DNA of 62,514 nt, counting the filler, from Deltaproteobacteria bacterium (GTDB lineage: Bacteria > JAEEML01): the NCBI GenBank assembly GCA_016283195.1. It is 3 parts of 3 records of this genome, joined end to end, with 100 filler letters (N's around TTAATTAATTAA, not from the genome) between each part and the next. Parts side by side here need not be neighbours in the genome. Positions count along the whole stretch, not along the records: positions 33,976 to 62,514 come from JAEEML010000076.1; 2 more parts are not named here. The stretch is one strand, 5' to 3'. A program made the translations under genes and the position numbers. Shown in pieces: positions 10,709 through 52,690 of this stretch. Every line of letters starts with the position of its first letter. The first letter of the stretch is position 1. The notes under the pieces are model-generated. The model searched no databases. It saw only the letters and a program-made list of their open reading frames with translations, and was not told where the DNA came from.

Positions 10709-10808
10709 NNNNNNNNNNNNNNNNNNNNNNNNNNNNNNNNNNNNNNNNNNNNTTAATTAATTAANNNNNNNNNNNNNNNNNNNNNNNNNNNNNNNNNNNN
10801 NNNNNNNN
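10709..10808. other. Artificial contig spacer
   Basis: N44 + TTAATTAATTAA (stop codons in all six frames) + N44. Confidence 0.97.
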
Positions 10809-33875: not shown

Positions 33876-33975
33876 NNNNNNNNNNNNNNNNNNNNNNNNN
33901 NNNNNNNNNNNNNNNNNNNTTAATTAATTAANNNNNNNNNNNNNNNNNNNNNNNNNNNNNNNNNNNNNNNNNNNN
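33876..33975. other. Artificial contig spacer
   Basis: Same N44-TTAATTAATTAA-N44 structure as at 10709. Confidence 0.97.
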
Positions 33976-39079: not shown

Positions 39080-39280
39080 ATTAAAATGTGGATGAAAAGC
39101 TCTCAATATCCATCTCTGAATATTTTTGAACGGCGCGCTGTAATGGAAGCTGATAACTTTTCATTAAAACTTCACAGGCTATTTCGCATAAAGCTGTTTT
39201 CCCTTGAAATATTAGCTTTTATTGGCTAAAATACACGCTTGGGTTTTTATGGCCCAAATATGTGCCTTTTGGAGTTATAT

Positions 39281-40306
39281 TTGCGTAGTTCAGTTGAGGT
39301 CAGGGTGGGGCTTTTTGTGGTGGCCACCGTGGCTATATTTATTGTTTTTCTCTTTCTTTTGGGCGATTACCGCTTTGGTAAAGGCCTGAAAATTTACACT
39401 GATTTTCACTTTTCCGGCTCTCTCTCGGCCGGAGCGCCGGTTAAAATCAGCGGCGTGCGCATCGGTAAAGTCACGGAAGTGCGCTATGTGGGCGCCACTA
39501 AAAATGTGGATCCGCCTCTCTACCCCGAGCCGCCGGAGCGCGCTATTCAGGTGCGGGCTACCGTGCTCATAGATGAAGCTTACGTTGATGCCATTAACAG
39601 CAATAGCACCTTTCTGATAAATCAAGGCCTCTTTGGTGAGTCATATCTGGAATTTAGGCGGGCTGATAATGGTGCCCCGGTGGTAAATGGTGCTATCTTT
39701 CGCGGCCGTGATGCCCAAAGCCTCGATTCTTTAATTTCTACAATAAGTAGAACAGTTTCCGATTTAAAGCTTGATCAAATTGACTTAAAAGCAGTAGGCA
39801 CTCTTTTAAAAGACGGCTCTTCGCTGGCTAATACCATGCAACGCATTTTGGCCACCGCCGAACCGGAAGTGCCGGTTTTGCTTAGCAATGCCAACGGCGC
39901 GGTCTTGTCTTTTAAAGAGCTGGCCGATGGCGGCAAAAAACTAATTTCCACTAATGGTGATTTAGCTAAAACACTAAATAATACCAAACAATTAAGCGGC
40001 ACTTTAGCCGGCGGCGGCGAGTCGCTTATGAATGAGGCTTTTAATGCTTTGGCCGCCATTAAAAAGCTGGATGCCATTTTGAGTGCCATTCCGCCGGAAA
40101 AGGTTGGTAGAATTATTGACAATGCCGATATTACCATGAATAACTTGCAAGGCGGTTCGCGAGATTTGGCCGCCGTTATGGGCAAAGTTCGGAGCGGCCA
40201 GAGTACAGTGGGCGCTCTTTTGATGAGCCAAGAATTATATAATGATATCAAGGAGCTTGTTAAAGATATAAAACGGCATCCCTGGAAGGTGCTTTGGAGG
40301 AAGTAA
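39281..40306 (+). CDS. mlaD: MlaD/MCE-domain protein
   Basis: EVRVGLFV TM helix, GAPVKISGVRIGKV, QGLFGESYLE, coiled coil and terminal DIKRHPWK. Confidence 0.88.
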   Translation: MRSSVEVRVGLFVVATVAIFIVFLFLLGDYRFGKGLKIYTDFHFSGSLSAGAPVKISGVRIGKVTEVRYVGATKNVDPPLYPEPPERAIQVRATVLIDEAYVDAINSNSTFLINQGLFGESYLEFRRADNGAPVVNGAIFRGRDAQSLDSLISTISRTVSDLKLDQIDLKAVGTLLKDGSSLANTMQRILATAEPEVPVLLSNANGAVLSFKELADGGKKLISTNGDLAKTLNNTKQLSGTLAGGGESLMNEAFNALAAIKKLDAILSAIPPEKVGRIIDNADITMNNLQGGSRDLAAVMGKVRSGQSTVGALLMSQELYNDIKELVKDIKRHPWKVLWRK

Positions 40307-40309
40307 AGA

Positions 40310-40756
40310 ATGAAGGATACCTTAAAGCAGACGCCCCGCGTGATTTTGCAAAAGTCCCACAAAGTTGAATATGGTGAATTGCGCCGTTTTGCGGCTGCTA
40401 CCGGCAATGATAATCCTATCTTTCAAAATCAAGATGCCGCCAAAGAAGCCGGTTACCGAGATATTTTGGCAGTTCCTACTTTTCCTGATTTTTTCAATTA
40501 TATTGAAGAAATATGTAGTATTCTTGACCTTGAATTACCGCGTCTTACTCTTTGCTCACAAAATATTGATTGGTTTAGGCCGCTTTATGCCGCCGAGGAT
40601 TTGGACATTAAAGTTACCTTGGCCAGCAGTACCGAGCAGCGCAATGCCAATATGAGATTGGTTTGGCTCACTATTGATACCGAAGCTCAAACAAAACGCG
40701 GTATTCCGATTTTTAAGAGCAGTCGCACCTTTATTTACACCACTACCGTCCGCTGA
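40310..40756 (+). CDS. MaoC-like (HadA/FAS1-type) hotdog dehydratase subunit
   Basis: LRRFAAATGNDNP, AKEAGY, AVPTF and WFRPLYA patterns. Confidence 0.8.
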   Translation: MKDTLKQTPRVILQKSHKVEYGELRRFAAATGNDNPIFQNQDAAKEAGYRDILAVPTFPDFFNYIEEICSILDLELPRLTLCSQNIDWFRPLYAAEDLDIKVTLASSTEQRNANMRLVWLTIDTEAQTKRGIPIFKSSRTFIYTTTVR

Positions 40757-40771
40757 AAAGAGGAGTTTTAG

Positions 40772-41902
40772 ATGGCTATTGTTTATTTTTCTGAATTGGA
40801 AAAAGGCAGTAAATTGCCGGCTACCGAGGTTGGCCCTATTTCGCGTCGCGAGATTGTGCGCTATGTGGCGGCCAGCGGCGATTTTAACCAGCGTTATTAT
40901 GACGATGATTATGCTCAGGATAAGCGCGGGGTTATTGTCCCGGCGATGTTGGTAATGAGTTATTTTACCAAAATGCTGTCCAAATGGTCCTCAAGTAGTG
41001 TCCTGCGCACTTTTTCCTTTAATTTATCGAAATTTGTGCGTCCAGAAGATTCGCTTATTTTGCAAGGAATTGTGATTGAGCAGCACCCACAGCAAAGCCA
41101 GGTTAAAGTAGAGCTTTGGGCCGAAAACCAAAACGGTGAAAAGGTAGCTACTGCTCAGGCGGTTATTGTGCTGCCCATGGCTCCGGATAAGCCAATCAGC
41201 AAAAAGAGTCAGGAAAGCGGCCTTTATATTAGTGCAGTGCCGGAAAAATCTAATAAGCCGGAGAATGTAATTGCCCAAAAAACTGAAGAAATTCATCAGA
41301 ATATAACTAATATTCTGGCTGAAGCTGCCGAAGTTGGCAACAAACTGAAAGAAGAAATCAGCAAAAAAATAGATGCTGTCAAAGAAGCGGCCCAAAAAGA
41401 TGACAAAAAGGCTATAGCTGAGGCTGCCCCCAAAGCCAAAGCCGCACCGGCTAAAGAGACCGTCAAAAAAGATGACAAAAAGGCTAAAGCCGCAGTGGCC
41501 CCCAAAGCCGCCCAGGCCAAAGAAGTAGCCAAAAAAGATGACAAAAAAGCTAAAGCTGCGGTAGCCCCCAAAGCCGCTCCGGCCAAAGAAGCAGCAAAAA
41601 AAGATGACAAAAAAGCCAAAGCTGCGGTAGCCCCCAAAGCCGCCCCGGCTAAAGAAGCAGCCAAAAAAGATGACAAAAAGGCTAAAGCTGCGGTAGCCCC
41701 CAAAGCCGCTCCGGCCAAAGAGGCCGCCAAAAAAGATGATAAAAAGGCTAAAGCCGCAGTAGCCCCCAAAGCCGCACCGGCTAAAGAAGCAGCCAAAAAA
41801 GATGACAAAAAAGCTAAAGCCGAAGCGGTTTCTAAAGCACCGGCTAAAGCTCCGGCAACAAAAGCGCCAGCCAAAAAAGAGCAGGGCAAGGGTAAAAAGT
41901 AA
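40772..41902 (+). CDS. MaoC-like dehydratase fused to a Lys/Ala/Pro-rich histone-H1-like tail
   Basis: YVAASGDFN and FVRPED hotdog motifs; C-terminal 22-aa repeats. Confidence 0.8.
   Translation: MAIVYFSELEKGSKLPATEVGPISRREIVRYVAASGDFNQRYYDDDYAQDKRGVIVPAMLVMSYFTKMLSKWSSSSVLRTFSFNLSKFVRPEDSLILQGIVIEQHPQQSQVKVELWAENQNGEKVATAQAVIVLPMAPDKPISKKSQESGLYISAVPEKSNKPENVIAQKTEEIHQNITNILAEAAEVGNKLKEEISKKIDAVKEAAQKDDKKAIAEAAPKAKAAPAKETVKKDDKKAKAAVAPKAAQAKEVAKKDDKKAKAAVAPKAAPAKEAAKKDDKKAKAAVAPKAAPAKEAAKKDDKKAKAAVAPKAAPAKEAAKKDDKKAKAAVAPKAAPAKEAAKKDDKKAKAEAVSKAPAKAPATKAPAKKEQGKGKK
41390..41830 (+). repeat. 66-bp coding tandem repeat (KKDDKKAKAAVAPKAAPAKEAA, about 6.5 copies)
   Basis: GATGA(C/T)AAAAA recurs at 41399, 41471, 41537, 41603, 41669, 41735 and 41801. 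Confidence 0.95.
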
Positions 41903-42387
41903 TGGCAAGGCCAGCAAAACCATTGAAAAAAGTGCTTTTAAAATCCACTGTGCGGCCGGAAGTAATAAAGCGTTGTACTTCTCTCATAGATAAAGAAGTC
42001 GGCAAAAAAAGCGGCCTCACAGGCTTGGCCATTAAAGGCGGTTACAAAATAGTAAAGAATCTTAAAGGCGGCAAAATGATTCCGGAAGCTGTTGATTGGC
42101 TTCTGGATGAATTTGTGGAACAAATGGAGCCTGTAGCCGCCGATTTTGTGAAAAATGGCGGCGAACTGAGCGATGAGTCGGCTTTAACTCATTGTTTTGT
42201 AACAGAAAAAAGCACTTTGGCCAATGCGCTTTTAACTGTAACCGATTCGCGAGCCCAAAAGGCCAAAAACAAAATAATGGTGGATGCTTATAAAAAACTG
42301 CGTCCCATGGCTCTCCGCGAAGTGGAAGCCGCTCTCCCCGGTGTGGCTTCCGTTATTGCCGCAACAGCCAAAGAAGTAAAAGGCTAA
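41902..42387 (+). CDS. Conserved helical hypothetical protein (DUF6918-like)
   Basis: LIDKEVGKKSGLTGLAIKGGY...ANALLTVTD...AYKKLRP pattern recalled from a myxobacterial/actinobacterial family; TAATG-coupled to the upstream gene. Confidence 0.6.
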   Translation: MARPAKPLKKVLLKSTVRPEVIKRCTSLIDKEVGKKSGLTGLAIKGGYKIVKNLKGGKMIPEAVDWLLDEFVEQMEPVAADFVKNGGELSDESALTHCFVTEKSTLANALLTVTDSRAQKAKNKIMVDAYKKLRPMALREVEAALPGVASVIAATAKEVKG

Positions 42388-44984: not shown

Positions 44985-45488
44985 GTGGCGGGAAAAACAG
45001 TATTATTTGTTATTATGGCTATTTTACTGCTTTTAGGGGCACTTTGTTCCCTTAAACGCAAGCCCTGGCAGGCCGCGCTTTTGATTTTGCCGATTACTGC
45101 TCTCGCAGCTGGTATGCTCTATATGTTAGAGCGCAATCTACTGGCTATAACTCTGCTTTTTTCCGGCTGTTTTAATAGTTTGTTATTCTTTATTCTGGCC
45201 GTGCGCAGCGCAGCGGAAGTGGTGCGTCCGCGCCCCTTTAAACCCTATGGCGGAGCTCTCAGCCTTATTGTGGCGGCAATGGTGGTTTACGGACTTTTCC
45301 GCCTCTGGCAGCTTTTGCCGCCGGCAACCGACCAGGCTTCTGCTGCTCCGGCCGGGGCTATGGCTTCCGGCGCCTCGGCTATCCTGGCTGATTTTTTGCT
45401 GCAAAACAGCCTTCTCGCGGTGCTTAGCGGTATTTTTATGCTTATTGCCACTGCTTTTGTGGTAATATATAGCACAAAAGAGGAATAA
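44985..45488 (+). CDS. Divergent NuoJ-like membrane protein
   Basis: 167 aa with five hydrophobic segments; first gene of a J-K-L-M-N-sized series. Confidence 0.6.
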   Translation: MAGKTVLFVIMAILLLLGALCSLKRKPWQAALLILPITALAAGMLYMLERNLLAITLLFSGCFNSLLFFILAVRSAAEVVRPRPFKPYGGALSLIVAAMVVYGLFRLWQLLPPATDQASAAPAGAMASGASAILADFLLQNSLLAVLSGIFMLIATAFVVIYSTKEE

Positions 45489-45489
45489 T

Positions 45490-45801
45490 ATGGCTTATTT
45501 ACCCCAAATTGCCGCTATTAGTGCTCTGCTTTTGCTGGCCGGCGGTCTTGGCGCTCTTTTAATTCATCGTCACCTTTTTTTCATGCTTATCGCCCTTAAT
45601 TATGCTCTTTGCGGAGTTATTCTTTTACTGGGCGCTTTTTCCTCCTCGGCTGCCGATAGTAGGGCTGAGTACTATGGTTTACTGGTGCTTGTTGTGGGAG
45701 AAATTTCTGCACTACTGGCAACTTGTGCTTTGGCTCTTTATTTTAAAAAGCACCGTTCGCTGGATATGGCGGCGCCAAACATGGCGGAAGAGGAGATATA
45801 A
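45490..45801 (+). CDS. Divergent NuoK-like membrane protein
   Basis: 103 aa, three TMs; RHLFFMLIAL, VGEIS and YFKKHRSLD resemble NuoK. Confidence 0.7.
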   Translation: MAYLPQIAAISALLLLAGGLGALLIHRHLFFMLIALNYALCGVILLLGAFSSSAADSRAEYYGLLVLVVGEISALLATCALALYFKKHRSLDMAAPNMAEEEI

Positions 45802-47681
45802 TGACGAGCTCTTTCCTCTGGTACACTTTGGAAACGCTGGCTCTCTTTTTGCCTTTCCTCTTCTCTCTGTATTTATTCTTAACTTGTCATAATTCTTCTA
45901 AATTTTTGGAGAATACCCTGGTCATTGTCTTGGTGACGCTGAATATCGCCCTGACGCTCTCCATCTACATAATGCTGCCCGGTGAGCCGCAGCATTTAGT
46001 TTTTGGTAATTGGCTTTCAATGGGGACGGTGCGGCTTGATTTTGCCTTTCGCCTTGATGCTCTAAATACGCTTTTGCAAGCCATCGGCACATTGTTTGTG
46101 AGCATAGCCATTTTTTTCTCTCTGGGTTACATGAACCGCGACCAAACTCCGCGCCGTTTTATTGGCATACTTTTTTTACTCGATGGCTTTTTTAAATTGT
46201 TTTTCCTGGCTGATGGCTTTTTCTTAACTCTTGCCGCTCTGGTGTTTATCTTGTTTGCCTCCGGAGTGCTAACAGCTTATTATTATAGCGATTTAGGTAA
46301 AGTACAACGAGCAGGACGCGGTATGTTGCTTGACCTTTTGGGGCTTTTTACTCTGCTTGTTGCCGGCATTCTTATTATTACAGCTTATGGTGGAGACACT
46401 TACGCTTTTTTAGCTAAGGCCGCCGCAGAAGGAGGAAAGCCGGAAGTCACATTTTGGTGCACTGTGCTTTTGGCCGTGTTTTTGGTCTTTAGAGCTGCTC
46501 AAGTGCCTTTTCACACTTGGTGCCTGGAGATGTCTGCCGCCCCTAGTCCGGCAACAGCGCTTTTCCAGGGGGCTCTTAGTACCTTTGTCTTGGGACTTAT
46601 CTTTATTCGTCTGCGGCCGGTTGTAGATGTTACGCTATTTAGCTATATTTTTTGGATAATCGGCTCTATATCCATGGTTATTTCGGCCGTTATCGGTATG
46701 TTGCAATGGAATGTTAAACATATTTTGGCTTATATCTGGATGAACAGAGTGAGCTTTTTTCTTATGGCTTTGCCGCTTTTGGCTCCGGAACGCCTGGTAA
46801 ATGAAATATTTTTACTTTCGGCCGCGCTTTTTGTCCTCTTTTTGGGCACAGCTATAATCATCCGCTATTTGGGTGATGAACAGCAACTTGGTAACATTGG
46901 CCGACTATATAACCGTGTGCCGCTGGTTATGGGTACCACAGCTTTGGCTTTTTTTGCTCTTTTGCCTCTGCCGCTCTCTCCGGAACAAAACGTGGCTCAA
47001 GAGATTTTGCGGAATATGTGGCTGGCGCGGGCAACTAAACCGCTTTTGATATTACCATTAATAATGTATCTTCTGGGCGAGGGTGTGGCTGCGGCTTTGG
47101 CTGCCCGTTATTTTCTGCGACTTTTTGTGCTTAAGCCTTTGGCCGAACAGCCGGAAAATCGCCGGAGCGCCGCCGGTAAAGTTCCACTGGAGATGCCGGT
47201 GGCTCTTTTGGCAGCCCTCATTTTTCTCTTTTTTGTCTCCCATTTTGCCATATTGAGCGGGGAAAATCTGGCTAGTCTTAAATGGCAATGGCAATGGCCA
47301 TTTTTACTAATTAATATTGCGGATATTTGGCCTGTCTCTATAGCCGCGTTATTAGGCTTTTTGGCTGTATTTATATATCTTTTGCGCAGTGACCGGCGGC
47401 GTTATTTCCCCGGCCAGTATTTTGCCGGCAAATATGAATACTTGCTCCACGATGCCTATTACCGGGTAATTGCCAAGCCGGTTCTTTATATTACCGATTT
47501 GCTCTTTGGCCGCATTATTGGAGAGTTTTTACCTGATTTTATTAAAAAATCAGCTGGTTATCTGGCGGCCGGCAGCGGGTATCTGGGGAAAATGCTTTAC
47601 CGCGGCGATATTCGTTACCATGTGACGCTCTTCTTTCTTGCTTTGCTTACGCTACTCTATTTGCTGGGAGGAGAGCTATAA
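45801..47681 (+). CDS. Divergent NuoL/MrpA-like antiporter-type subunit
   Basis: WLSMG..LDFAFRLDAL, FSLGYM..D...RRF, AAQVPFHTW, APSPATAL and terminal GDIRYHV motifs. Confidence 0.8.
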   Translation: MTSSFLWYTLETLALFLPFLFSLYLFLTCHNSSKFLENTLVIVLVTLNIALTLSIYIMLPGEPQHLVFGNWLSMGTVRLDFAFRLDALNTLLQAIGTLFVSIAIFFSLGYMNRDQTPRRFIGILFLLDGFFKLFFLADGFFLTLAALVFILFASGVLTAYYYSDLGKVQRAGRGMLLDLLGLFTLLVAGILIITAYGGDTYAFLAKAAAEGGKPEVTFWCTVLLAVFLVFRAAQVPFHTWCLEMSAAPSPATALFQGALSTFVLGLIFIRLRPVVDVTLFSYIFWIIGSISMVISAVIGMLQWNVKHILAYIWMNRVSFFLMALPLLAPERLVNEIFLLSAALFVLFLGTAIIIRYLGDEQQLGNIGRLYNRVPLVMGTTALAFFALLPLPLSPEQNVAQEILRNMWLARATKPLLILPLIMYLLGEGVAAALAARYFLRLFVLKPLAEQPENRRSAAGKVPLEMPVALLAALIFLFFVSHFAILSGENLASLKWQWQWPFLLINIADIWPVSIAALLGFLAVFIYLLRSDRRRYFPGQYFAGKYEYLLHDAYYRVIAKPVLYITDLLFGRIIGEFLPDFIKKSAGYLAAGSGYLGKMLYRGDIRYHVTLFFLALLTLLYLLGGEL

Positions 47682-49435
47682 TGGAATTTATCTGGCACCA
47701 TGCTCTTCTTTTAATAATTCTTGTGCCGTTTTTGGCTTCGCTGCTGCTTTTTACTTTCCCCAAAAGTCCCGGCGGCGGGCAAAGACAATTTTCTTTAGTT
47801 GTCGCTGTAGTGATTCTGTTGGCGGCAATTGGCCTTTCTTATGGCCATTATTATCTTTTTCCTGATTGGCAACTAGGCGATTACCTTAGCCACAGCCAAT
47901 TTTTAGCTGTTAATTATCATGCCGATGCCGATAGTTTCACCCTCTTTCTTTTGCTGGTGGCGGCCATAGCTATTTTGCTTTCGGTTTTATTGGCCCCGCG
48001 GCGTTTGCCGGAATTACGCTCTTATTATGCCTTGCTATTTTTAGGCGAGTCGTTGCTGTTTTTAAATATAACTGCGCAAAATTTAATAATTTTTGTGGCT
48101 TCTTTCCTGCTTGGTACACTGCTTGGCCTTTGGCTTGGTTGGCGCTGGCTGGCGGCCGAATATGCCGGGGATTTGCGCCGTTTTGTTTTGTGGCGCCTGA
48201 GTGCCATCTTTATTTTGTTCATCGGCATTATTATGCTGGGCCAGGCTGCTTCTTCTTTTGATGTTTCACAAATTGCTGAATTTATAGCCGATTCGCCCAT
48301 AGAACCTGAGTTGCAAAAGCGCATATTTGCAGTGCTTGTGAGCGGCATACTCCTGCTTATTCCTCTTTATCCCTGGCCGCTTTTTTCCGCAGTTTGGCAA
48401 AATACCCCCCATGGTTTTATTGTGCTACGCCTATTGGAAACACTCTCTTTGCTCCATTTTCTGGTGGGGATTGTTATGCCCATACTGCCACTGGGAGTGG
48501 CAAACGCCGCGCCATTACTGGCTCTTATCACTATCTTTTCGGCTCTGGCTGCTTCGGCCCTCTCGCTGCATGAAGAAGATTTGCGCAATATCTTTTGGCG
48601 CATTCTTTGTGCTTTCAATGCCTTTTCGCTGACTGCCATTTTCAGTCTCCGGGCCGAGGGAATAAGCGGGGGACTTTTGCTGGCCTTTAGTGTGGCTGCC
48701 ATTTATGTCGGTATTAGCTGGTATCACCGGGAAATGTTGCCGCATCGCATACCATGTTTGATAGATCGCCACCAGGGATTGGCGGCACAGGCACCAAAAA
48801 CAGCGCTTATATATGCTTTTTTAGCCGCCGGATTTACTGTTTTGCCGCTTTTTGCCACTTTGGGCAGTATATTGCTAAGTTTTAGCGGTCTATGGCAGAG
48901 CCCACTGGTAGCTAGCTACATTACTTATAAAGAAATTGTTCATCTGGCGACTTTTTTAGTGCTTTTGGCCCTTTTAGTGGCCAGTATTGCGCTTGTTCCA
49001 TGGCTTCTCAAAGCACTTTACAATAACAGGATAAGTAGAGTTATTTTTGTCATTATTTTGTTCCTCTGGCTGTTGCTTTTGGGGCAATTTCTTATTGCCT
49101 CGCCAATTAGTCTCGGCCTCTGCCCGAGGCTCTATCACAGCTTTGACAGCGATGATGGACCTTTTGGACAACTATTTAATTTTATTGCTATTCTTTTCGT
49201 GGTTGGCCTTGTTTTTCAGCATATCGGAGTGGCCAGGGCGGTTATTCGCTTACTCACCGGCACGCCTTCGCTCATAGTGCAAAATCCGCCTATGGAATTT
49301 GCCGAACATAAGCGGCTGCTGGGCTGGTTTATAGTGGCACTTTTGGTCTTATTGGGTTTGGCCCAGAGCGGATATTCCAGATTTATCGAGGAGCTTGCAG
49401 TCTCGGTGGCCAAAGCGCTGGGAGTGGCATTATGA
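47681..49435 (+). CDS. Divergent NuoM-like subunit
   Basis: VNYHADADSF, QNLIIF, MPILP, GISGG and GLAAQAPK match the NuoM scaffold; extra hydrophobic segment near the C-terminus. Confidence 0.7.
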   Translation: MEFIWHHALLLIILVPFLASLLLFTFPKSPGGGQRQFSLVVAVVILLAAIGLSYGHYYLFPDWQLGDYLSHSQFLAVNYHADADSFTLFLLLVAAIAILLSVLLAPRRLPELRSYYALLFLGESLLFLNITAQNLIIFVASFLLGTLLGLWLGWRWLAAEYAGDLRRFVLWRLSAIFILFIGIIMLGQAASSFDVSQIAEFIADSPIEPELQKRIFAVLVSGILLLIPLYPWPLFSAVWQNTPHGFIVLRLLETLSLLHFLVGIVMPILPLGVANAAPLLALITIFSALAASALSLHEEDLRNIFWRILCAFNAFSLTAIFSLRAEGISGGLLLAFSVAAIYVGISWYHREMLPHRIPCLIDRHQGLAAQAPKTALIYAFLAAGFTVLPLFATLGSILLSFSGLWQSPLVASYITYKEIVHLATFLVLLALLVASIALVPWLLKALYNNRISRVIFVIILFLWLLLLGQFLIASPISLGLCPRLYHSFDSDDGPFGQLFNFIAILFVVGLVFQHIGVARAVIRLLTGTPSLIVQNPPMEFAEHKRLLGWFIVALLVLLGLAQSGYSRFIEELAVSVAKALGVAL

Positions 49436-50862
49436 CTAATTTGCTGCCGGTTTTATCACCTTTATTGCTACCACTCATAATAGCGGCTTTTTTAGTGCTT
49501 ATTGCCGGTACTGCGCTTAGCAAAAAAATACTGCGTGTCGAAGGTCAGAGAGCTTCAACGCATCTGTTTTTACTTCTTTTCGGCACGACGCTGGCCACCA
49601 TATATGTGGCGATAGGGCGCTGTATCCGGGAGGGCAGTATTGCAAATATATTGTCGCTGCTCATTATCAGCGCCACTTTTTTGCTGCTTTTTTTAGCCTT
49701 TGCATCGCCGGATATTGTAAAAAACGGTCACTCCGCCGGTGATGTCGGAGCTCTCCTGCTCCTTGCGGCGGCCGCGGCGGTTTTAGCCGTAAACAGCAAT
49801 AATTTACTTATTATGATTGTTGCGCTTTCCGGGGCTGTTACTGCCTGTTTGGCTGTGGCTAATATGGAAGGTTTGCCTGAAACAAGGCTGGTATTTACTA
49901 TGCCGGCTATTATTTATCTGATAACGGTTTTCATGATTATTATTTTGGGGGCCGTTTTGCTCTATGGCGCTGTAAATACTTTTGATCTAATTGAAATAAT
50001 TAAATATCACGAGCTTGATAAGGCGCCGGCACTTACTTTGTTTTGGACGGGAATAATCATAATCATATTGGCATTACTAACTTTTATGCCGCTCTTTCCG
50101 TTTAATTTTTTGTGGCCGGAACTTATAGCCGGCGGTAAGACAGTTGGAGTAGCGGCCTTTTTTTCCACCGTTTCTTTAACGGCAGTTGGCCTGTGGCTTA
50201 AATTTGCGCCACTTTTTGCAACTAAGCCGAAATTAATGTGGTGCCTGGCTGTTCTCGCTGTTATTACTATGTTTTTTGGCGCTCTGGTTGCTTTGCGCGA
50301 GCGGGTTTTATCGGCCTTGATAGCCGATGTGATAATTTATTTAGCTGGTGAAATGCTGCTTTTCTTTACCATAGCATTTAAGAATAGTGGCAATATTGCC
50401 CATGAAATTATAATTGCTGCCGGCCCGCATTTTATAACGATAATAGCACTTTTGGGCCTAAAGAGTATTTTACAAACCGAAAGCAATTCCTATGCCGTTA
50501 AGCCTTATAAATGCCTGACCGGACTTTGGCGCCGCTCACCGTTTTTGGCGGCCGCGCTTATTTTTATTTTGTTCTCTTTGGCCGGGATTCCGCTCACCGC
50601 CGGATTTACTCTTTCTCTTAGCCTTTTACGCGTGCTGGCGACGCTGTCTCTTACCTTTAGCATTGCTTTCGCTTTGGCCAATATTATGATGCTGTCAGCG
50701 GCTGTGCGCCTTGTTTACACCATTTGTTTTACAAAATCTGAAGCAGAAATTGTGCCAAAATTTTCTAAATATTTACTTTTTCTGTTAATGATCTCTCTCG
50801 GGCTTTTGGTGCTTTGGGGAATTATGCCCGATGTACCGCTGCTTCTGCTTGGTGGCAGATAG
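49432..50862 (+). CDS. Divergent NuoN-like subunit
   Basis: GAVLLYG, PFNFLWP, ITMFFGALVAL and GLWRRSPFLA..FSLAGIPLTAGF motifs. Confidence 0.8.
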   Translation: MTNLLPVLSPLLLPLIIAAFLVLIAGTALSKKILRVEGQRASTHLFLLLFGTTLATIYVAIGRCIREGSIANILSLLIISATFLLLFLAFASPDIVKNGHSAGDVGALLLLAAAAAVLAVNSNNLLIMIVALSGAVTACLAVANMEGLPETRLVFTMPAIIYLITVFMIIILGAVLLYGAVNTFDLIEIIKYHELDKAPALTLFWTGIIIIILALLTFMPLFPFNFLWPELIAGGKTVGVAAFFSTVSLTAVGLWLKFAPLFATKPKLMWCLAVLAVITMFFGALVALRERVLSALIADVIIYLAGEMLLFFTIAFKNSGNIAHEIIIAAGPHFITIIALLGLKSILQTESNSYAVKPYKCLTGLWRRSPFLAAALIFILFSLAGIPLTAGFTLSLSLLRVLATLSLTFSIAFALANIMMLSAAVRLVYTICFTKSEAEIVPKFSKYLLFLLMISLGLLVLWGIMPDVPLLLLGGR

Positions 50863-50890: not shown

Positions 50891-52690
50891 ATGGATCTTT
50901 TTTGTCAGCATTGTAACCAGCAGTATTATGCGGAAACCTATGTTGAAGGCATGGTGTGCCCGGTTTGCAACTCTGTATTGGTTATGTTGGAGCAGGTAGC
51001 AGCCCCTGCAGCTCCTGTTCAGGAATCTGTGCCGGCCGAAGCGCAGCAAGAGGCGGTAGCTCCTGTGGAAGAGGCGGTAGCTCCTGTGGAAGAGCCGGTA
51101 GCCCCTGTGGAAGAGCCGGTGGCCCCTGTGGAAGAGGCGGTAGCTCCAGTGGAAGAGGCGGTAGCTCCAGTGGAAGAGGCGGTAGCTCCAGTGGAAGAGG
51201 CGGTGGCCCCTGTGGAAGAGCCGGTGGCCCCTGTGGAAGAGGCGGTAGCCCCTGTGGAAGAGGCGGTAGCCCCTGTGGAAGAGCCGGTAGCCCCTGTGGA
51301 AGAGGCGGTAGCTCCAGTGGAAAGTGTGTCCGAAGAACCGGCGTCTATGCCGGTTTCTGCCGGTGATGCCAATAATTTTTTACCTACTTTTTCTTTTTCA
51401 TCATTTACTGGTAATGCGCCTGAAAGTACCGGCGATGCAGTCCCACCGGCAGCTGCCGAGCCGCCTATGGCGCCGGTTGACGCTGTTGCCGCTGCGAATG
51501 TGGCGCCGGAAGAGCCTGTGGAACAATCAATAGAACAGCCGCAACCGCTTGAAACGGCTGTTGCTCCCGAGACTTCAAGTGCCGCTGGCCCGGAATTGCC
51601 AAAATTCGATATTTCCTGGGATAGCCCATTGGCGGCCGGCGGAGAAGTGCCTTTATCATCAGCTCCTGTTGATAGCAGTGCTACTCCGGGCGGTTTTGAA
51701 CTGCCAAGTTTCCCTGATTTTTCTCTGCCGCCTATTGATGGCATGGATTCTTCAGCGCCTGCCGAAAATGCCGAAGCACCAAAGACTAATGAAGAAATGG
51801 CCGATGGTGTTGATGTAGCCGATGTGGCCGGCAGTGTTGATATTGCCGCCGGAGAAGCGGCCGCAGCCCCAGGTGTAGAAAGTGAAGAGCCGTCTGCACC
51901 TCTTGCTGCCGCTCCGGTGCCGCCACCGATGCCAGTGCCGCCGCCACGGCCGATGGAAAAAGAAAACTCCACGTCTGTGGCTGACCAATTAGGTTTGCCG
52001 GATCTCGGCATTGCTATTGAAAAGCCTAAAAAACCGCAAGTTGAGCTGGTGAGTGCCGAAGAAGCTAAAGAGGTGGCCGAAGCCAAAGAGGCAGTGGAAA
52101 AGCAGGGCGGTAGTAAAGCTCCGCTCATTATTCTTATTGCCATTATCATTGCTGCCGGTTTGGCTTGCCCATTTATCGACCCGGATTTGGGCTTCTTTGG
52201 CTACAAGAAAATCGGCTTGGCTGTAGGCCTTATTGAGCCACCGCCGCCGCCCAAGCCCATTGAGCCCACCCCGCGCGAAAAGGCATTGCTGGCTTATAAG
52301 AAGGCCGTTGAACTGGTGCAGGCCGGAGCCAATGACAGCGCCATAGACAAATTTAAAGAGGCTCTTACTTTTGATGCCACAATTGGCAGAATACATCGCG
52401 ACTTGGCTATTTCTTATGCCAAAGCCGGCAAAAAAGATGACTCCGTGGAGAGTTACCGGGCATATTTAAAACTTGAACCGGCTGCCGATGATGCCAAGGA
52501 TGTGCAGAAAATTATTGATGAATATGATGCCCAAAAGAAGAAAGAAGCCGAGGAAAAATTAGCTGCGGAAAAGAAAGCGGAAGAAGAGCGCATTGCAGCC
52601 GAGAAAAAGGCAGAAGCCGAGGCAGCTAAAAAAGCGGCTAAAAACAAAAAATCTTCTAAAAAATCAAAAAGTTCTAAGAAAAAACGCTAA
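50891..52690 (+). CDS. Zinc-ribbon / acidic Pro-rich linker / TM / TPR protein
   Basis: CQHC...CPVC at the N-terminus; TM LIILIAIIIAAGLA; TPR HRDLAISYAKAG..YRAYLKLEP; Lys-rich tail. Confidence 0.8.
   Translation: MDLFCQHCNQQYYAETYVEGMVCPVCNSVLVMLEQVAAPAAPVQESVPAEAQQEAVAPVEEAVAPVEEPVAPVEEPVAPVEEAVAPVEEAVAPVEEAVAPVEEAVAPVEEPVAPVEEAVAPVEEAVAPVEEPVAPVEEAVAPVESVSEEPASMPVSAGDANNFLPTFSFSSFTGNAPESTGDAVPPAAAEPPMAPVDAVAAANVAPEEPVEQSIEQPQPLETAVAPETSSAAGPELPKFDISWDSPLAAGGEVPLSSAPVDSSATPGGFELPSFPDFSLPPIDGMDSSAPAENAEAPKTNEEMADGVDVADVAGSVDIAAGEAAAAPGVESEEPSAPLAAAPVPPPMPVPPPRPMEKENSTSVADQLGLPDLGIAIEKPKKPQVELVSAEEAKEVAEAKEAVEKQGGSKAPLIILIAIIIAAGLACPFIDPDLGFFGYKKIGLAVGLIEPPPPPKPIEPTPREKALLAYKKAVELVQAGANDSAIDKFKEALTFDATIGRIHRDLAISYAKAGKKDDSVESYRAYLKLEPAADDAKDVQKIIDEYDAQKKKEAEEKLAAEKKAEEERIAAEKKAEAEAAKKAAKNKKSSKKSKSSKKKR
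51050..51322 (+). repeat. 21-bp coding tandem repeat, 13 copies (E[A/P]VAPVE)
   Basis: GAG(G/C)CGGT(A/G)GC(T/C)CC(T/A)GTGGAA units counted directly. Confidence 0.95.

Follow-up and report, generated by a model that had tools for sequence, protein, structure and literature searches.

What holds an operon of respiratory complex I membrane subunits intact once the residues that make these subunits proton pumps have gone from it? The question is raised by five genes in a 62,514-nucleotide (nt) stretch of DNA, here called the window, from the genome bin of a Deltaproteobacteria bacterium (GCA_016283195.1), which comprises 3.22 Mb in 190 contigs (rated completeness 100%, contamination 4.18%). The window joins separate contigs, with N spacers at 10709-10808 and 33876-33975, and only positions 33976-62514 (contig C115) are physically linked to the five genes, which follow the order of nuoJ, K, L, M, and N. 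We found that these J-N genes are under purifying selection, that the charged axis of the L-, M-, and N-like proteins is replaced or unalignable, and that a second degenerate cluster, with NuoA-, NuoCD-, and NuoH-like genes, lies on another contig (C172). On balance, and with some reserve, we favor the reading that the two loci together represent a cofactor-free, catalytically dead relic of complex I, which would be kept by selection for a new role.

The five genes are as follows (lengths in amino acids, aa):

44985-45488, plus strand: nuoJ-like gene, 167 aa, GTG start, about five hydrophobic segments as read by eye from the sequence
45490-45801, plus strand: nuoK-like gene, 103 aa
45801-47681, plus strand: nuoL-like gene, 626 aa, with a predicted lateral helix and C-terminal anchor helix
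47681-49435, plus strand: nuoM-like gene, 584 aa, the most diverged
49432-50862, plus strand: nuoN-like gene, 476 aa

The genes are tightly coupled: J and K are separated by 1 nt, K and L as well as L and M overlap at TAATG, and M and N overlap at ATGA. A GGAG-type Shine-Dalgarno (SD) sequence precedes each of them, and all five frames are open. Inspection of the open reading frames (ORFs), junctions, and SD sequences agrees with the preliminary description of this DNA, made by eye, which had reported five tightly coupled open ORFs in J-K-L-M-N order; its further statement that neither nuoA-I nor nuoH stands next to them is borne out by a Pfam scan of the up- and downstream genes on C115, in which none of these genes was found.

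We take the five genes to be true, extremely diverged homologs of NuoJ, K, L, M, and N, with J as the weakest assignment. In Pfam, the K-like protein matched PF00420 (33.9 bits), the L-like protein PF00361 (73 bits) and PF00662 (32 bits), and the N-like protein PF00361 (59.8 bits); the L- and N-like genes are the only PF00361 matches of the whole genome, and the J- and M-like proteins gave no Pfam match. The best NCBIfam match of the L-, M-, and N-like proteins is in each case the expected subunit and covers almost the whole length, at 118 bits for NuoL (cut-off 556; aligned over residues 11-621), 54 bits for NuoM (TIGR01972; cut-off 264), and 78 bits for NuoN (TIGR01770; cut-off 333). The K-like protein reached 26 bits against a cut-off of 89 and the J-like protein 15 against 154, the latter matching NuoJ (NF005168) at E 0.017 over residues 1-148. 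The curated family score was missed by every tested subunit, that is, by L, M, N, K, J, and the CD-like protein of the second cluster.

Canonical alignments were assembled from E. coli sequences and homologs from genome and protein searches (125 NuoL, 42 NuoM, 35 NuoN, 21 NuoK, 22 NuoJ, and 26 NuoH), and single queries were compared with them by hhalign. The values were 100% over 582 columns for L with NuoL, 99.2% for N with NuoN, and 91.6% for K with NuoK. The M-like protein gave 98.4% with NuoM, as against 84% with NuoN and 61.8% with NuoL; besides these two, off-family values were 5% or lower. In genome-wide searches with hidden Markov models (HMMs), the K-like protein was the top match of the canonical NuoK HMM (E 3e-6). 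The assignment of the J-like protein as NuoJ is weak: hhalign gave 33.8% over 52 columns with NuoJ and at most 2.8% with H, K, L, M, and N, PF00499 was found on 20 of 30 feature matches in the protein atlas (score 0.90), and the protein lies outside the top 6 genome-wide matches of the canonical NuoJ HMM. The top match of that HMM, a 174-aa ORF at C132:31771-32295 on the minus strand (E 0.0037), has no Pfam family and no nuo neighbors and was judged to be a chance match; a second NuoK-HMM match, on contig C82, runs antisense inside a 1849-aa ORF and was rejected. The extreme divergence appears to be specific to the relic genes, because E. coli NuoF finds NuoF-like genes in this genome at 342 and 323 bits and the neighbors of the J-N genes have ordinary Pfam scores.

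Which residues have been replaced? HMMER alignment to solved structures, MAFFT --add, and hhalign agree on the losses given here, and the E. coli numbering was checked. In the NuoK-like protein, E36 is N (N37) in every alignment, as had been read by eye; the single Glu of transmembrane helix 3 (TM3), E71 in the motif VVGEIS, is placed 2 to 4 residues off E72 by MAFFT and hhalign, which disagree with each other; by its motif it may correspond to E72, a plausible reading that had also been made by eye. In the NuoL-like protein, E144 is replaced by V, D178 by L, K229 by R, H254 by Q, and D303 by N, and H334, H338, K342, K399, and D400 are lost, so that the earlier reading of this subunit (E144, K229, H254, K342, and K399) is upheld by all three methods. 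The same can be said of the NuoN-like protein, where E133 is S, K217 is F, and K395 is S, together with H224, which is N. For the NuoM-like protein the earlier reading holds in part: K234 is L, H322 is F, and E407 is lost, and E144, K265, and H348 are unaligned by hhalign. The proposed change of LLK to LLE in M is only compatible with TM8 of the predicted model, and E253 is put at the TM8 Lys position by this motif and by its place in the middle of TM8 (helix 244-268) in that model. The charged axis of L, M, and N (TM5 Glu, TM7 Lys, TM8 Lys/His, TM12 Lys/Glu) is replaced or unalignable throughout; the sole conservative change is K229 to R231 in L, and the latter residue is Q in P0002, the relative of L that is described below.

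We counted a column as conserved if it is at least 85% conserved in the canonical alignment. L keeps 41 of 110 such columns, M 29 of 115, N 26 of 72, and K 1 of 18. By class, charged columns are kept at 5/17, 3/20, and 0/13 in L, M, and N (8/50 for the three), polar columns at 9/26, 3/23, and 2/20 (14/69), hydrophobic columns at 18/46, 10/41, and 9/18 (37/105), and Gly/Pro columns at 9/21, 13/31, and 15/21 (37/73). The counts suggest that structure-shaping residues are kept and hydrophilic ones preferentially lost. A hydropathy-only screen for buried charges was too unspecific for use.

The predicted fold of the L- and M-like proteins fits the same picture. An AlphaFold2 model of L, built from an alignment of the query, P0002, and 32 canonical NuoL sequences, reached a predicted local distance difference test score (pLDDT) of 82.9 and a predicted template modeling score (pTM) of 0.82. 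The β-hairpin is present and TM7 is broken; a helix of 63 residues (538-600) is followed by a terminal TM helix (604-625), and these two correspond in the model to the lateral helix of NuoL and its anchor. The best structural matches of the model are NuoL/ND5/NdhF chains without exception; with E. coli NuoL (7z84_L, VIA-align), Z is 41.1, with a root-mean-square deviation of 2.9 Å over 525 aligned residues. TM5, TM8, and TM12a of the model are without a charged residue, and TM7a has a single one, R231, at its end, where P0002 has Q. The model of M, from an alignment with 25 canonical rows, is less certain (pLDDT 67.8, pTM 0.71), with a poor C-terminal third and a broken TM7 (209-226 and 233-240); its top Foldseek chains are NdhD/NuoM/ND4, with target-normalized TM-scores of 0.70-0.80 among the top ten. 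The models thus predict that the antiporter-like fold with a discontinuous TM7 (L and M) and the NuoL lateral helix are kept.

Are such genes on their way out, or are they maintained? Variants were collected from contigs of four gut metagenome runs with at least 80% identity to the stretch, at low depth (2-5). Among the 40 variant positions considered here, to which 14 further ones would have to be added, 36 fall in J-N; 29 of these 36 are synonymous and 7 non-synonymous (synonymous/non-synonymous J 1/0, L 13/1, M 12/3, N 3/3), and none of the variants considered is an indel. With 26 transitions and 10 transversions taken into account, a synonymous share of 0.31 would be expected (P ~1e-9), and an omega-like ratio comes to ~0.11. 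Random errors at low depth would, if anything, raise the share of non-synonymous changes. The J-N genes are under purifying selection.

The comparison with relatives points the same way. An exhaustive HMMER search with L among 1.84 billion cluster representatives returned 3,778 proteins at E<=0.001, of which the only specific relative is P0002, a protein of 577 aa with 35% identity (233 bits); the next match, a canonical NuoL, has 106 bits. At 110 canonical conserved columns, L and P0002 both keep 30 and carry the same derived residue at 25, including H254 to Q, D303 to N, D178 to L, S314 to N, and Q315 to R, and long family-specific motifs are common to the two. The degenerate state therefore appears to be old and itself conserved. 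Searches for further relatives by DNA or peptide patterns in genome and metagenome contigs found only the window's own contig, and 40 genomes related only at domain level gave only canonical NuoL matches (at most 89 bits). In word-based homolog searches, the M-like protein found only canonical NuoM-type proteins (at most 57 bits) and the CD-like protein found nothing.

If the J-N genes are maintained, where is the rest of the complex? The preliminary description had proposed a genome search for nuoA-I and nuoH. Next to J-N there is none of them, as stated above; elsewhere in the genome, one weak PF00346 match led to a second cluster on contig C172, where five tightly spaced genes lie on the same strand, the last three with open frames, coupled junctions, and SD sequences:

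L013:3351-6853, gene 1: TLC/MFS transporter with HEAT repeats, 1027 aa
L013:3351-6853, gene 2: cyclic-nucleotide-binding protein, 140 aa, upstream of the A-like gene
L013:6863-9705, outside the window, on the same strand: the A-, CD-, and H-like genes, namely
gene 3: NuoA-like membrane protein, 124 aa, three hydrophobic segments
gene 4: NuoCD-like fusion protein, 492 aa
gene 5: NuoH-like polytopic membrane protein, 318 aa

From gene 1 up to the A-like gene, the spacing consists of a 4-nt overlap and a 9-nt gap. The CD-like protein matches the Pfam families Complex1_30kDa (28 bits) and Complex1_49kDa (46.5 bits), reaches 66 bits with the NCBIfam NuoD model (cut-off 360), and aligns to E. coli NuoCD by hhalign at 98.2% over 475 columns; its best PDB sequence match is the NuoD-like chain of MBS (6u8y_L, 31 bits). 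In the hhalign alignment, the CD-like protein lacks the His-loop segment of the quinone site, has MLPQ in place of HHRG, and has Leu opposite the Tyr. The H-like protein has no Pfam, NCBIfam, or PDB sequence match, and PF00146 (NuoH) is found nowhere in the genome at the Pfam level. It is, however, the top genome-wide match of the NuoH HMM among 17,587 six-frame ORFs (E 0.0021, with the next at 0.73), hhalign aligns it to NuoH at 89.5% over 234 columns (other templates at most 0.5%), and 24 of its 30 atlas matches carry PF00146. It keeps 7 of 10 conserved Gly/Pro columns and 2 of 18 charged columns, and the E-channel acids E157, D213, E216, E218, E220, and E228 are all replaced. The A-like protein ranks first in the genome-wide search with the canonical NuoA HMM, though weakly (E 0.1), and hhalign gives it 74.8% (controls at most 0.5%).

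The tetranucleotide correlation to the bin mean is 0.987 for C115 and 0.986 for C172, with a median of 0.984 for 82 contigs, and the compositions of the two contigs are typical of the bin. The neighborhood of the second cluster may point to a functional link to nucleotide transport or sensing. A further TLC/MFS gene, of 425 aa, was observed at L013:1181-2458.

The partners that would make these subunits an enzyme are largely absent. NuoB was found nowhere in the genome by PF01058 (E<=1), by E. coli NuoB, or by the canonical NuoB HMM (best E 0.26). No NuoI gene lies at the J-N or the C172 locus; E. coli NuoI matched only ORFs on other contigs, which we take to be generic ferredoxin-domain matches. 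Well-conserved NuoE/F/G-like triplets are located at C128:7170-11418 and C131:41124-44407. Their layout is presumably that of the soluble HydABC-type enzymes typical of fermenters, and they are probably soluble hydrogenase-type modules. Genome-wide searches found no haem-copper oxidase (COX1), cytochrome bd, or Rnf/Nqr, and no UbiA-family prenyltransferase, for which the same search was positive in 14 of 14 control genomes. FAD_binding_2 matches cover only the N-terminal dinucleotide motif, and of the five ATP-synt_ab matches, four look like two V-type ATPase pairs, with one left over. The labels of the matching metagenome runs are gut and sheep, with small word shares, and none of the runs listed for the stretch is recorded as RNA. 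The picture is that of a non-respiring fermenter of animal guts, in which the complex would be left without electron path or substrate, because neither a quinone prenyltransferase nor a terminal oxidase was found.

How can these observations be brought together? The reading that we favor starts from homology, residue loss, purifying selection, and the lack of partner genes, all of which are documented above. According to it, J-N would be what is left of the distal portion of a respiratory complex I, from which the core subunits without cofactor (A, C/D, H, J, K, L, M, and N) would have been kept and the iron-sulfur (Fe-S) connecting subunits lost; the pattern looks like a loss of these connectors rather than the retention of an arm alone. 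Features of the fold would survive in the conserved Gly/Pro, the discontinuous TM7, and the NuoL lateral helix with its anchor, and the functional residues are replaced throughout: in L, M, and N the Lys/Glu/His axis, in the K-like protein E36, in the H-like protein the E-channel acids, and in the NuoD part the His loop and Tyr at the quinone site. The eight or nine proteins of both loci might still assemble into a membrane complex with the shape of complex I, which would be incapable of redox-driven proton pumping. Its new role would most likely be that of a structural membrane scaffold, or else of a non-proton carrier through the remaining cavities. A more far-reaching form of this idea, which we put forward only tentatively, is that of an 'apo-complex I', a selected membrane machine without Fe-S connectors, quinone site, or proton axis that has acquired a wholly new function. 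It might handle lipids or hydrophobic molecules via the former quinone tunnel, or act as a scaffold that shapes or organizes the membrane. The preliminary description is accordingly to be revised in one respect: its inference that pumping residues are lost while selection holds the genes stands, and its suggestion of another role is reasonable, but a repurposed membrane arm alone is probably wrong in view of the A/CD/H-like cluster.

The alternative that deserves most weight, unlikely as we consider it, is that of a very diverged working ion transporter, either an Mrp-like antiporter or an unusual cation pump, which would carry its charges at non-canonical positions and be driven by the gradient of a V-type ATPase. 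Antiporter-like subunits can function without a redox module, as in Mrp, the ATP-synt_ab matches look like two V-type ATPase sets, and embedded charges are still found at E71 of K, at E123 and E253 of M (the latter a Glu in place of the TM8 Lys), and at E243, R316, and E427 of L, which are conserved in P0002. However, L, M, and N match Nuo models best and not Mrp, and neither MrpE (PF01899) nor MrpG (PF03334) was found in the genome-wide search, which did not extend to MrpF (PF04066); the specific reading as Mrp was rejected on these grounds. An ion transporter of any kind would also have to do without the Glu of TM5, the Lys of TM7, and the Lys/Glu of TM12, L and P0002 differ in the residues that stand instead at TM7 and TM12 (R vs Q), and the small share of conserved polar columns that is left in L, M, and N speaks against a hydrated path.

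It is also conceivable, though we hold it to be improbable, that the J-K-L-M-N arm acts alone and that the A/CD/H-like cluster is unrelated or a separately used relic. The two clusters are on different contigs, and the one on C172 is packed behind the TLC/MFS-HEAT transporter and cyclic-nucleotide-binding genes, which suggests a context of its own. Both clusters nevertheless show the same degeneration pattern, and their combined content is the cofactor-free core (A, C, D, H, J, K, L, M, and N), a match that is hard to ascribe to coincidence. Plain decay, by which the genes would be still-open pseudogenes on their way out, could account for the extremely low scores against all family models and for an organism with no visible use for a respiratory complex. 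This simple explanation, which the preliminary description had named as the alternative to its own, is contradicted by the 29:7 excess of synonymous variants and by P0002, a relative with 35% identity in which the same derived residues and the long conserved motifs recur; in addition, no frame is interrupted among the five J-N genes and the three of C172, whose junctions are coupled and which have SD sequences. We regard decay as very hard to reconcile with these data.

Several points weigh against the relic that we favor. Embedded charges are left in L (E11, E243, K306, R316, and E427, all conserved in P0002), in M (E123, R250, E253, H259, and R307), and in K (E71), and handling of ions by a non-canonical route through them is possible. 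The N-like gene alone has as many non-synonymous as synonymous variants (3 each), the contig depth is low enough for single variant calls to be errors, and the 14 further variants lie beyond those considered. Comparison across relatives is limited to P0002. The canonical sequences inside the alignments for the L and M models make the fold matches partly circular, and these matches indicate compatibility with the fold. That both loci form one complex is something we infer, and a structural role would be the default choice for such a complex. Finally, in a bin of 190 contigs with 4.18% contamination, it is possible in principle that the two loci stem from different organisms.

The surroundings of the J-N genes bear no relation to complex I; the upstream neighbors encode MlaD, two FAS1-like dehydratases, DUF6918, YitT, and UDG. 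A promoter and terminator scan gave counts near the shuffled expectation. The following cluster, a few kb upstream of the nuo-like operon, may be lipid-related:

39239-42387, plus strand: MlaD-domain protein, then two FAS1/MaoC-like dehydratase-domain proteins, then a DUF6918 protein

On the downstream side, the N-like gene has one close neighbor, whose membership in the operon is uncertain:

50891-52690, plus strand: gene X, 599 aa, neighbor of the N-like gene

Gene X, which is preceded by an SD sequence of its own, starts 28 nt past the N-like gene in the same orientation. Its product has an N-terminal Cys-pair motif resembling a zinc ribbon, about 15 tandem acidic repeats rich in Pro/Val/Glu, one hydrophobic segment, and a C-terminal part with a TPR-like region and a Lys-rich tail; NCBIfam matches are only weak and of TPR type (MamA, E 4e-6). 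Two long ORFs that overlap gene X, at 50956-51366 (plus strand, other frame) and 51019-52149 (minus strand), are probably not genes.

How does the predicted complex compare with known systems? With respiratory complex I (NuoA-N; E. coli 7z84 and 3rko) it would share the J-K-L-M-N order, homology subunit by subunit (weak for J), and A/CD/H-like genes on the other contig, as well as, in the models, the antiporter-like fold with a broken TM7 and the NuoL lateral helix with its anchor. It differs in scores that lie far under the curated cut-offs, in NuoB, which was not found in the genome, and NuoI, which is absent from both loci, in the replacement of the charged axis, NuoK E36, the E-channel acids, and the NuoD quinone-site His and Tyr, and in a host for which neither a quinone prenyltransferase nor a terminal oxidase was found. 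The reduced relatives of complex I, that is, the 11-subunit Nuo, cyanobacterial NDH-1, and the MBH/MBS/Ech-type hydrogenases, likewise have no NuoEFG beside the membrane genes. In these enzymes, Fe-S subunits of the NuoB and NuoI types are retained together with the charged residues, whereas here NuoB was not found and the charged residues are gone. The Mrp (Mnh/Pha) antiporter has NuoL/M/N-like and NuoK-like subunits that act without a redox module, but the L-like protein is, by Pfam, without the extra domains of MrpA type (PF13244 and PF20501), and the Lys/Glu residues common to Mrp and complex I are absent here.

Complex I is among the most studied energy converters, and its core residues are treated as near-invariant. 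New here is the matching degenerate A-CD-H cluster, in a genome where NuoB and quinone synthesis were not found. In a full-text literature search, with subscription journals outside its coverage, no description of naturally residue-stripped complex I subunits was found. A 2025 survey reports 2,171 species with an 'incomplete' complex I (PMC12361115), and degeneration is not discussed in the part of its text available to us. Counts of this kind (PMC12361115) may hide forms that are dead but selected, which is a warning for annotation. If the reading that we favor is true, the two loci would provide a natural control with all sites mutated for the scaffold role of complex I, in assembly, in membrane organization, in the lateral helix, and in the former quinone tunnel. 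It would also mean that complex I can be exapted, besides being lost, when a lineage abandons respiration.

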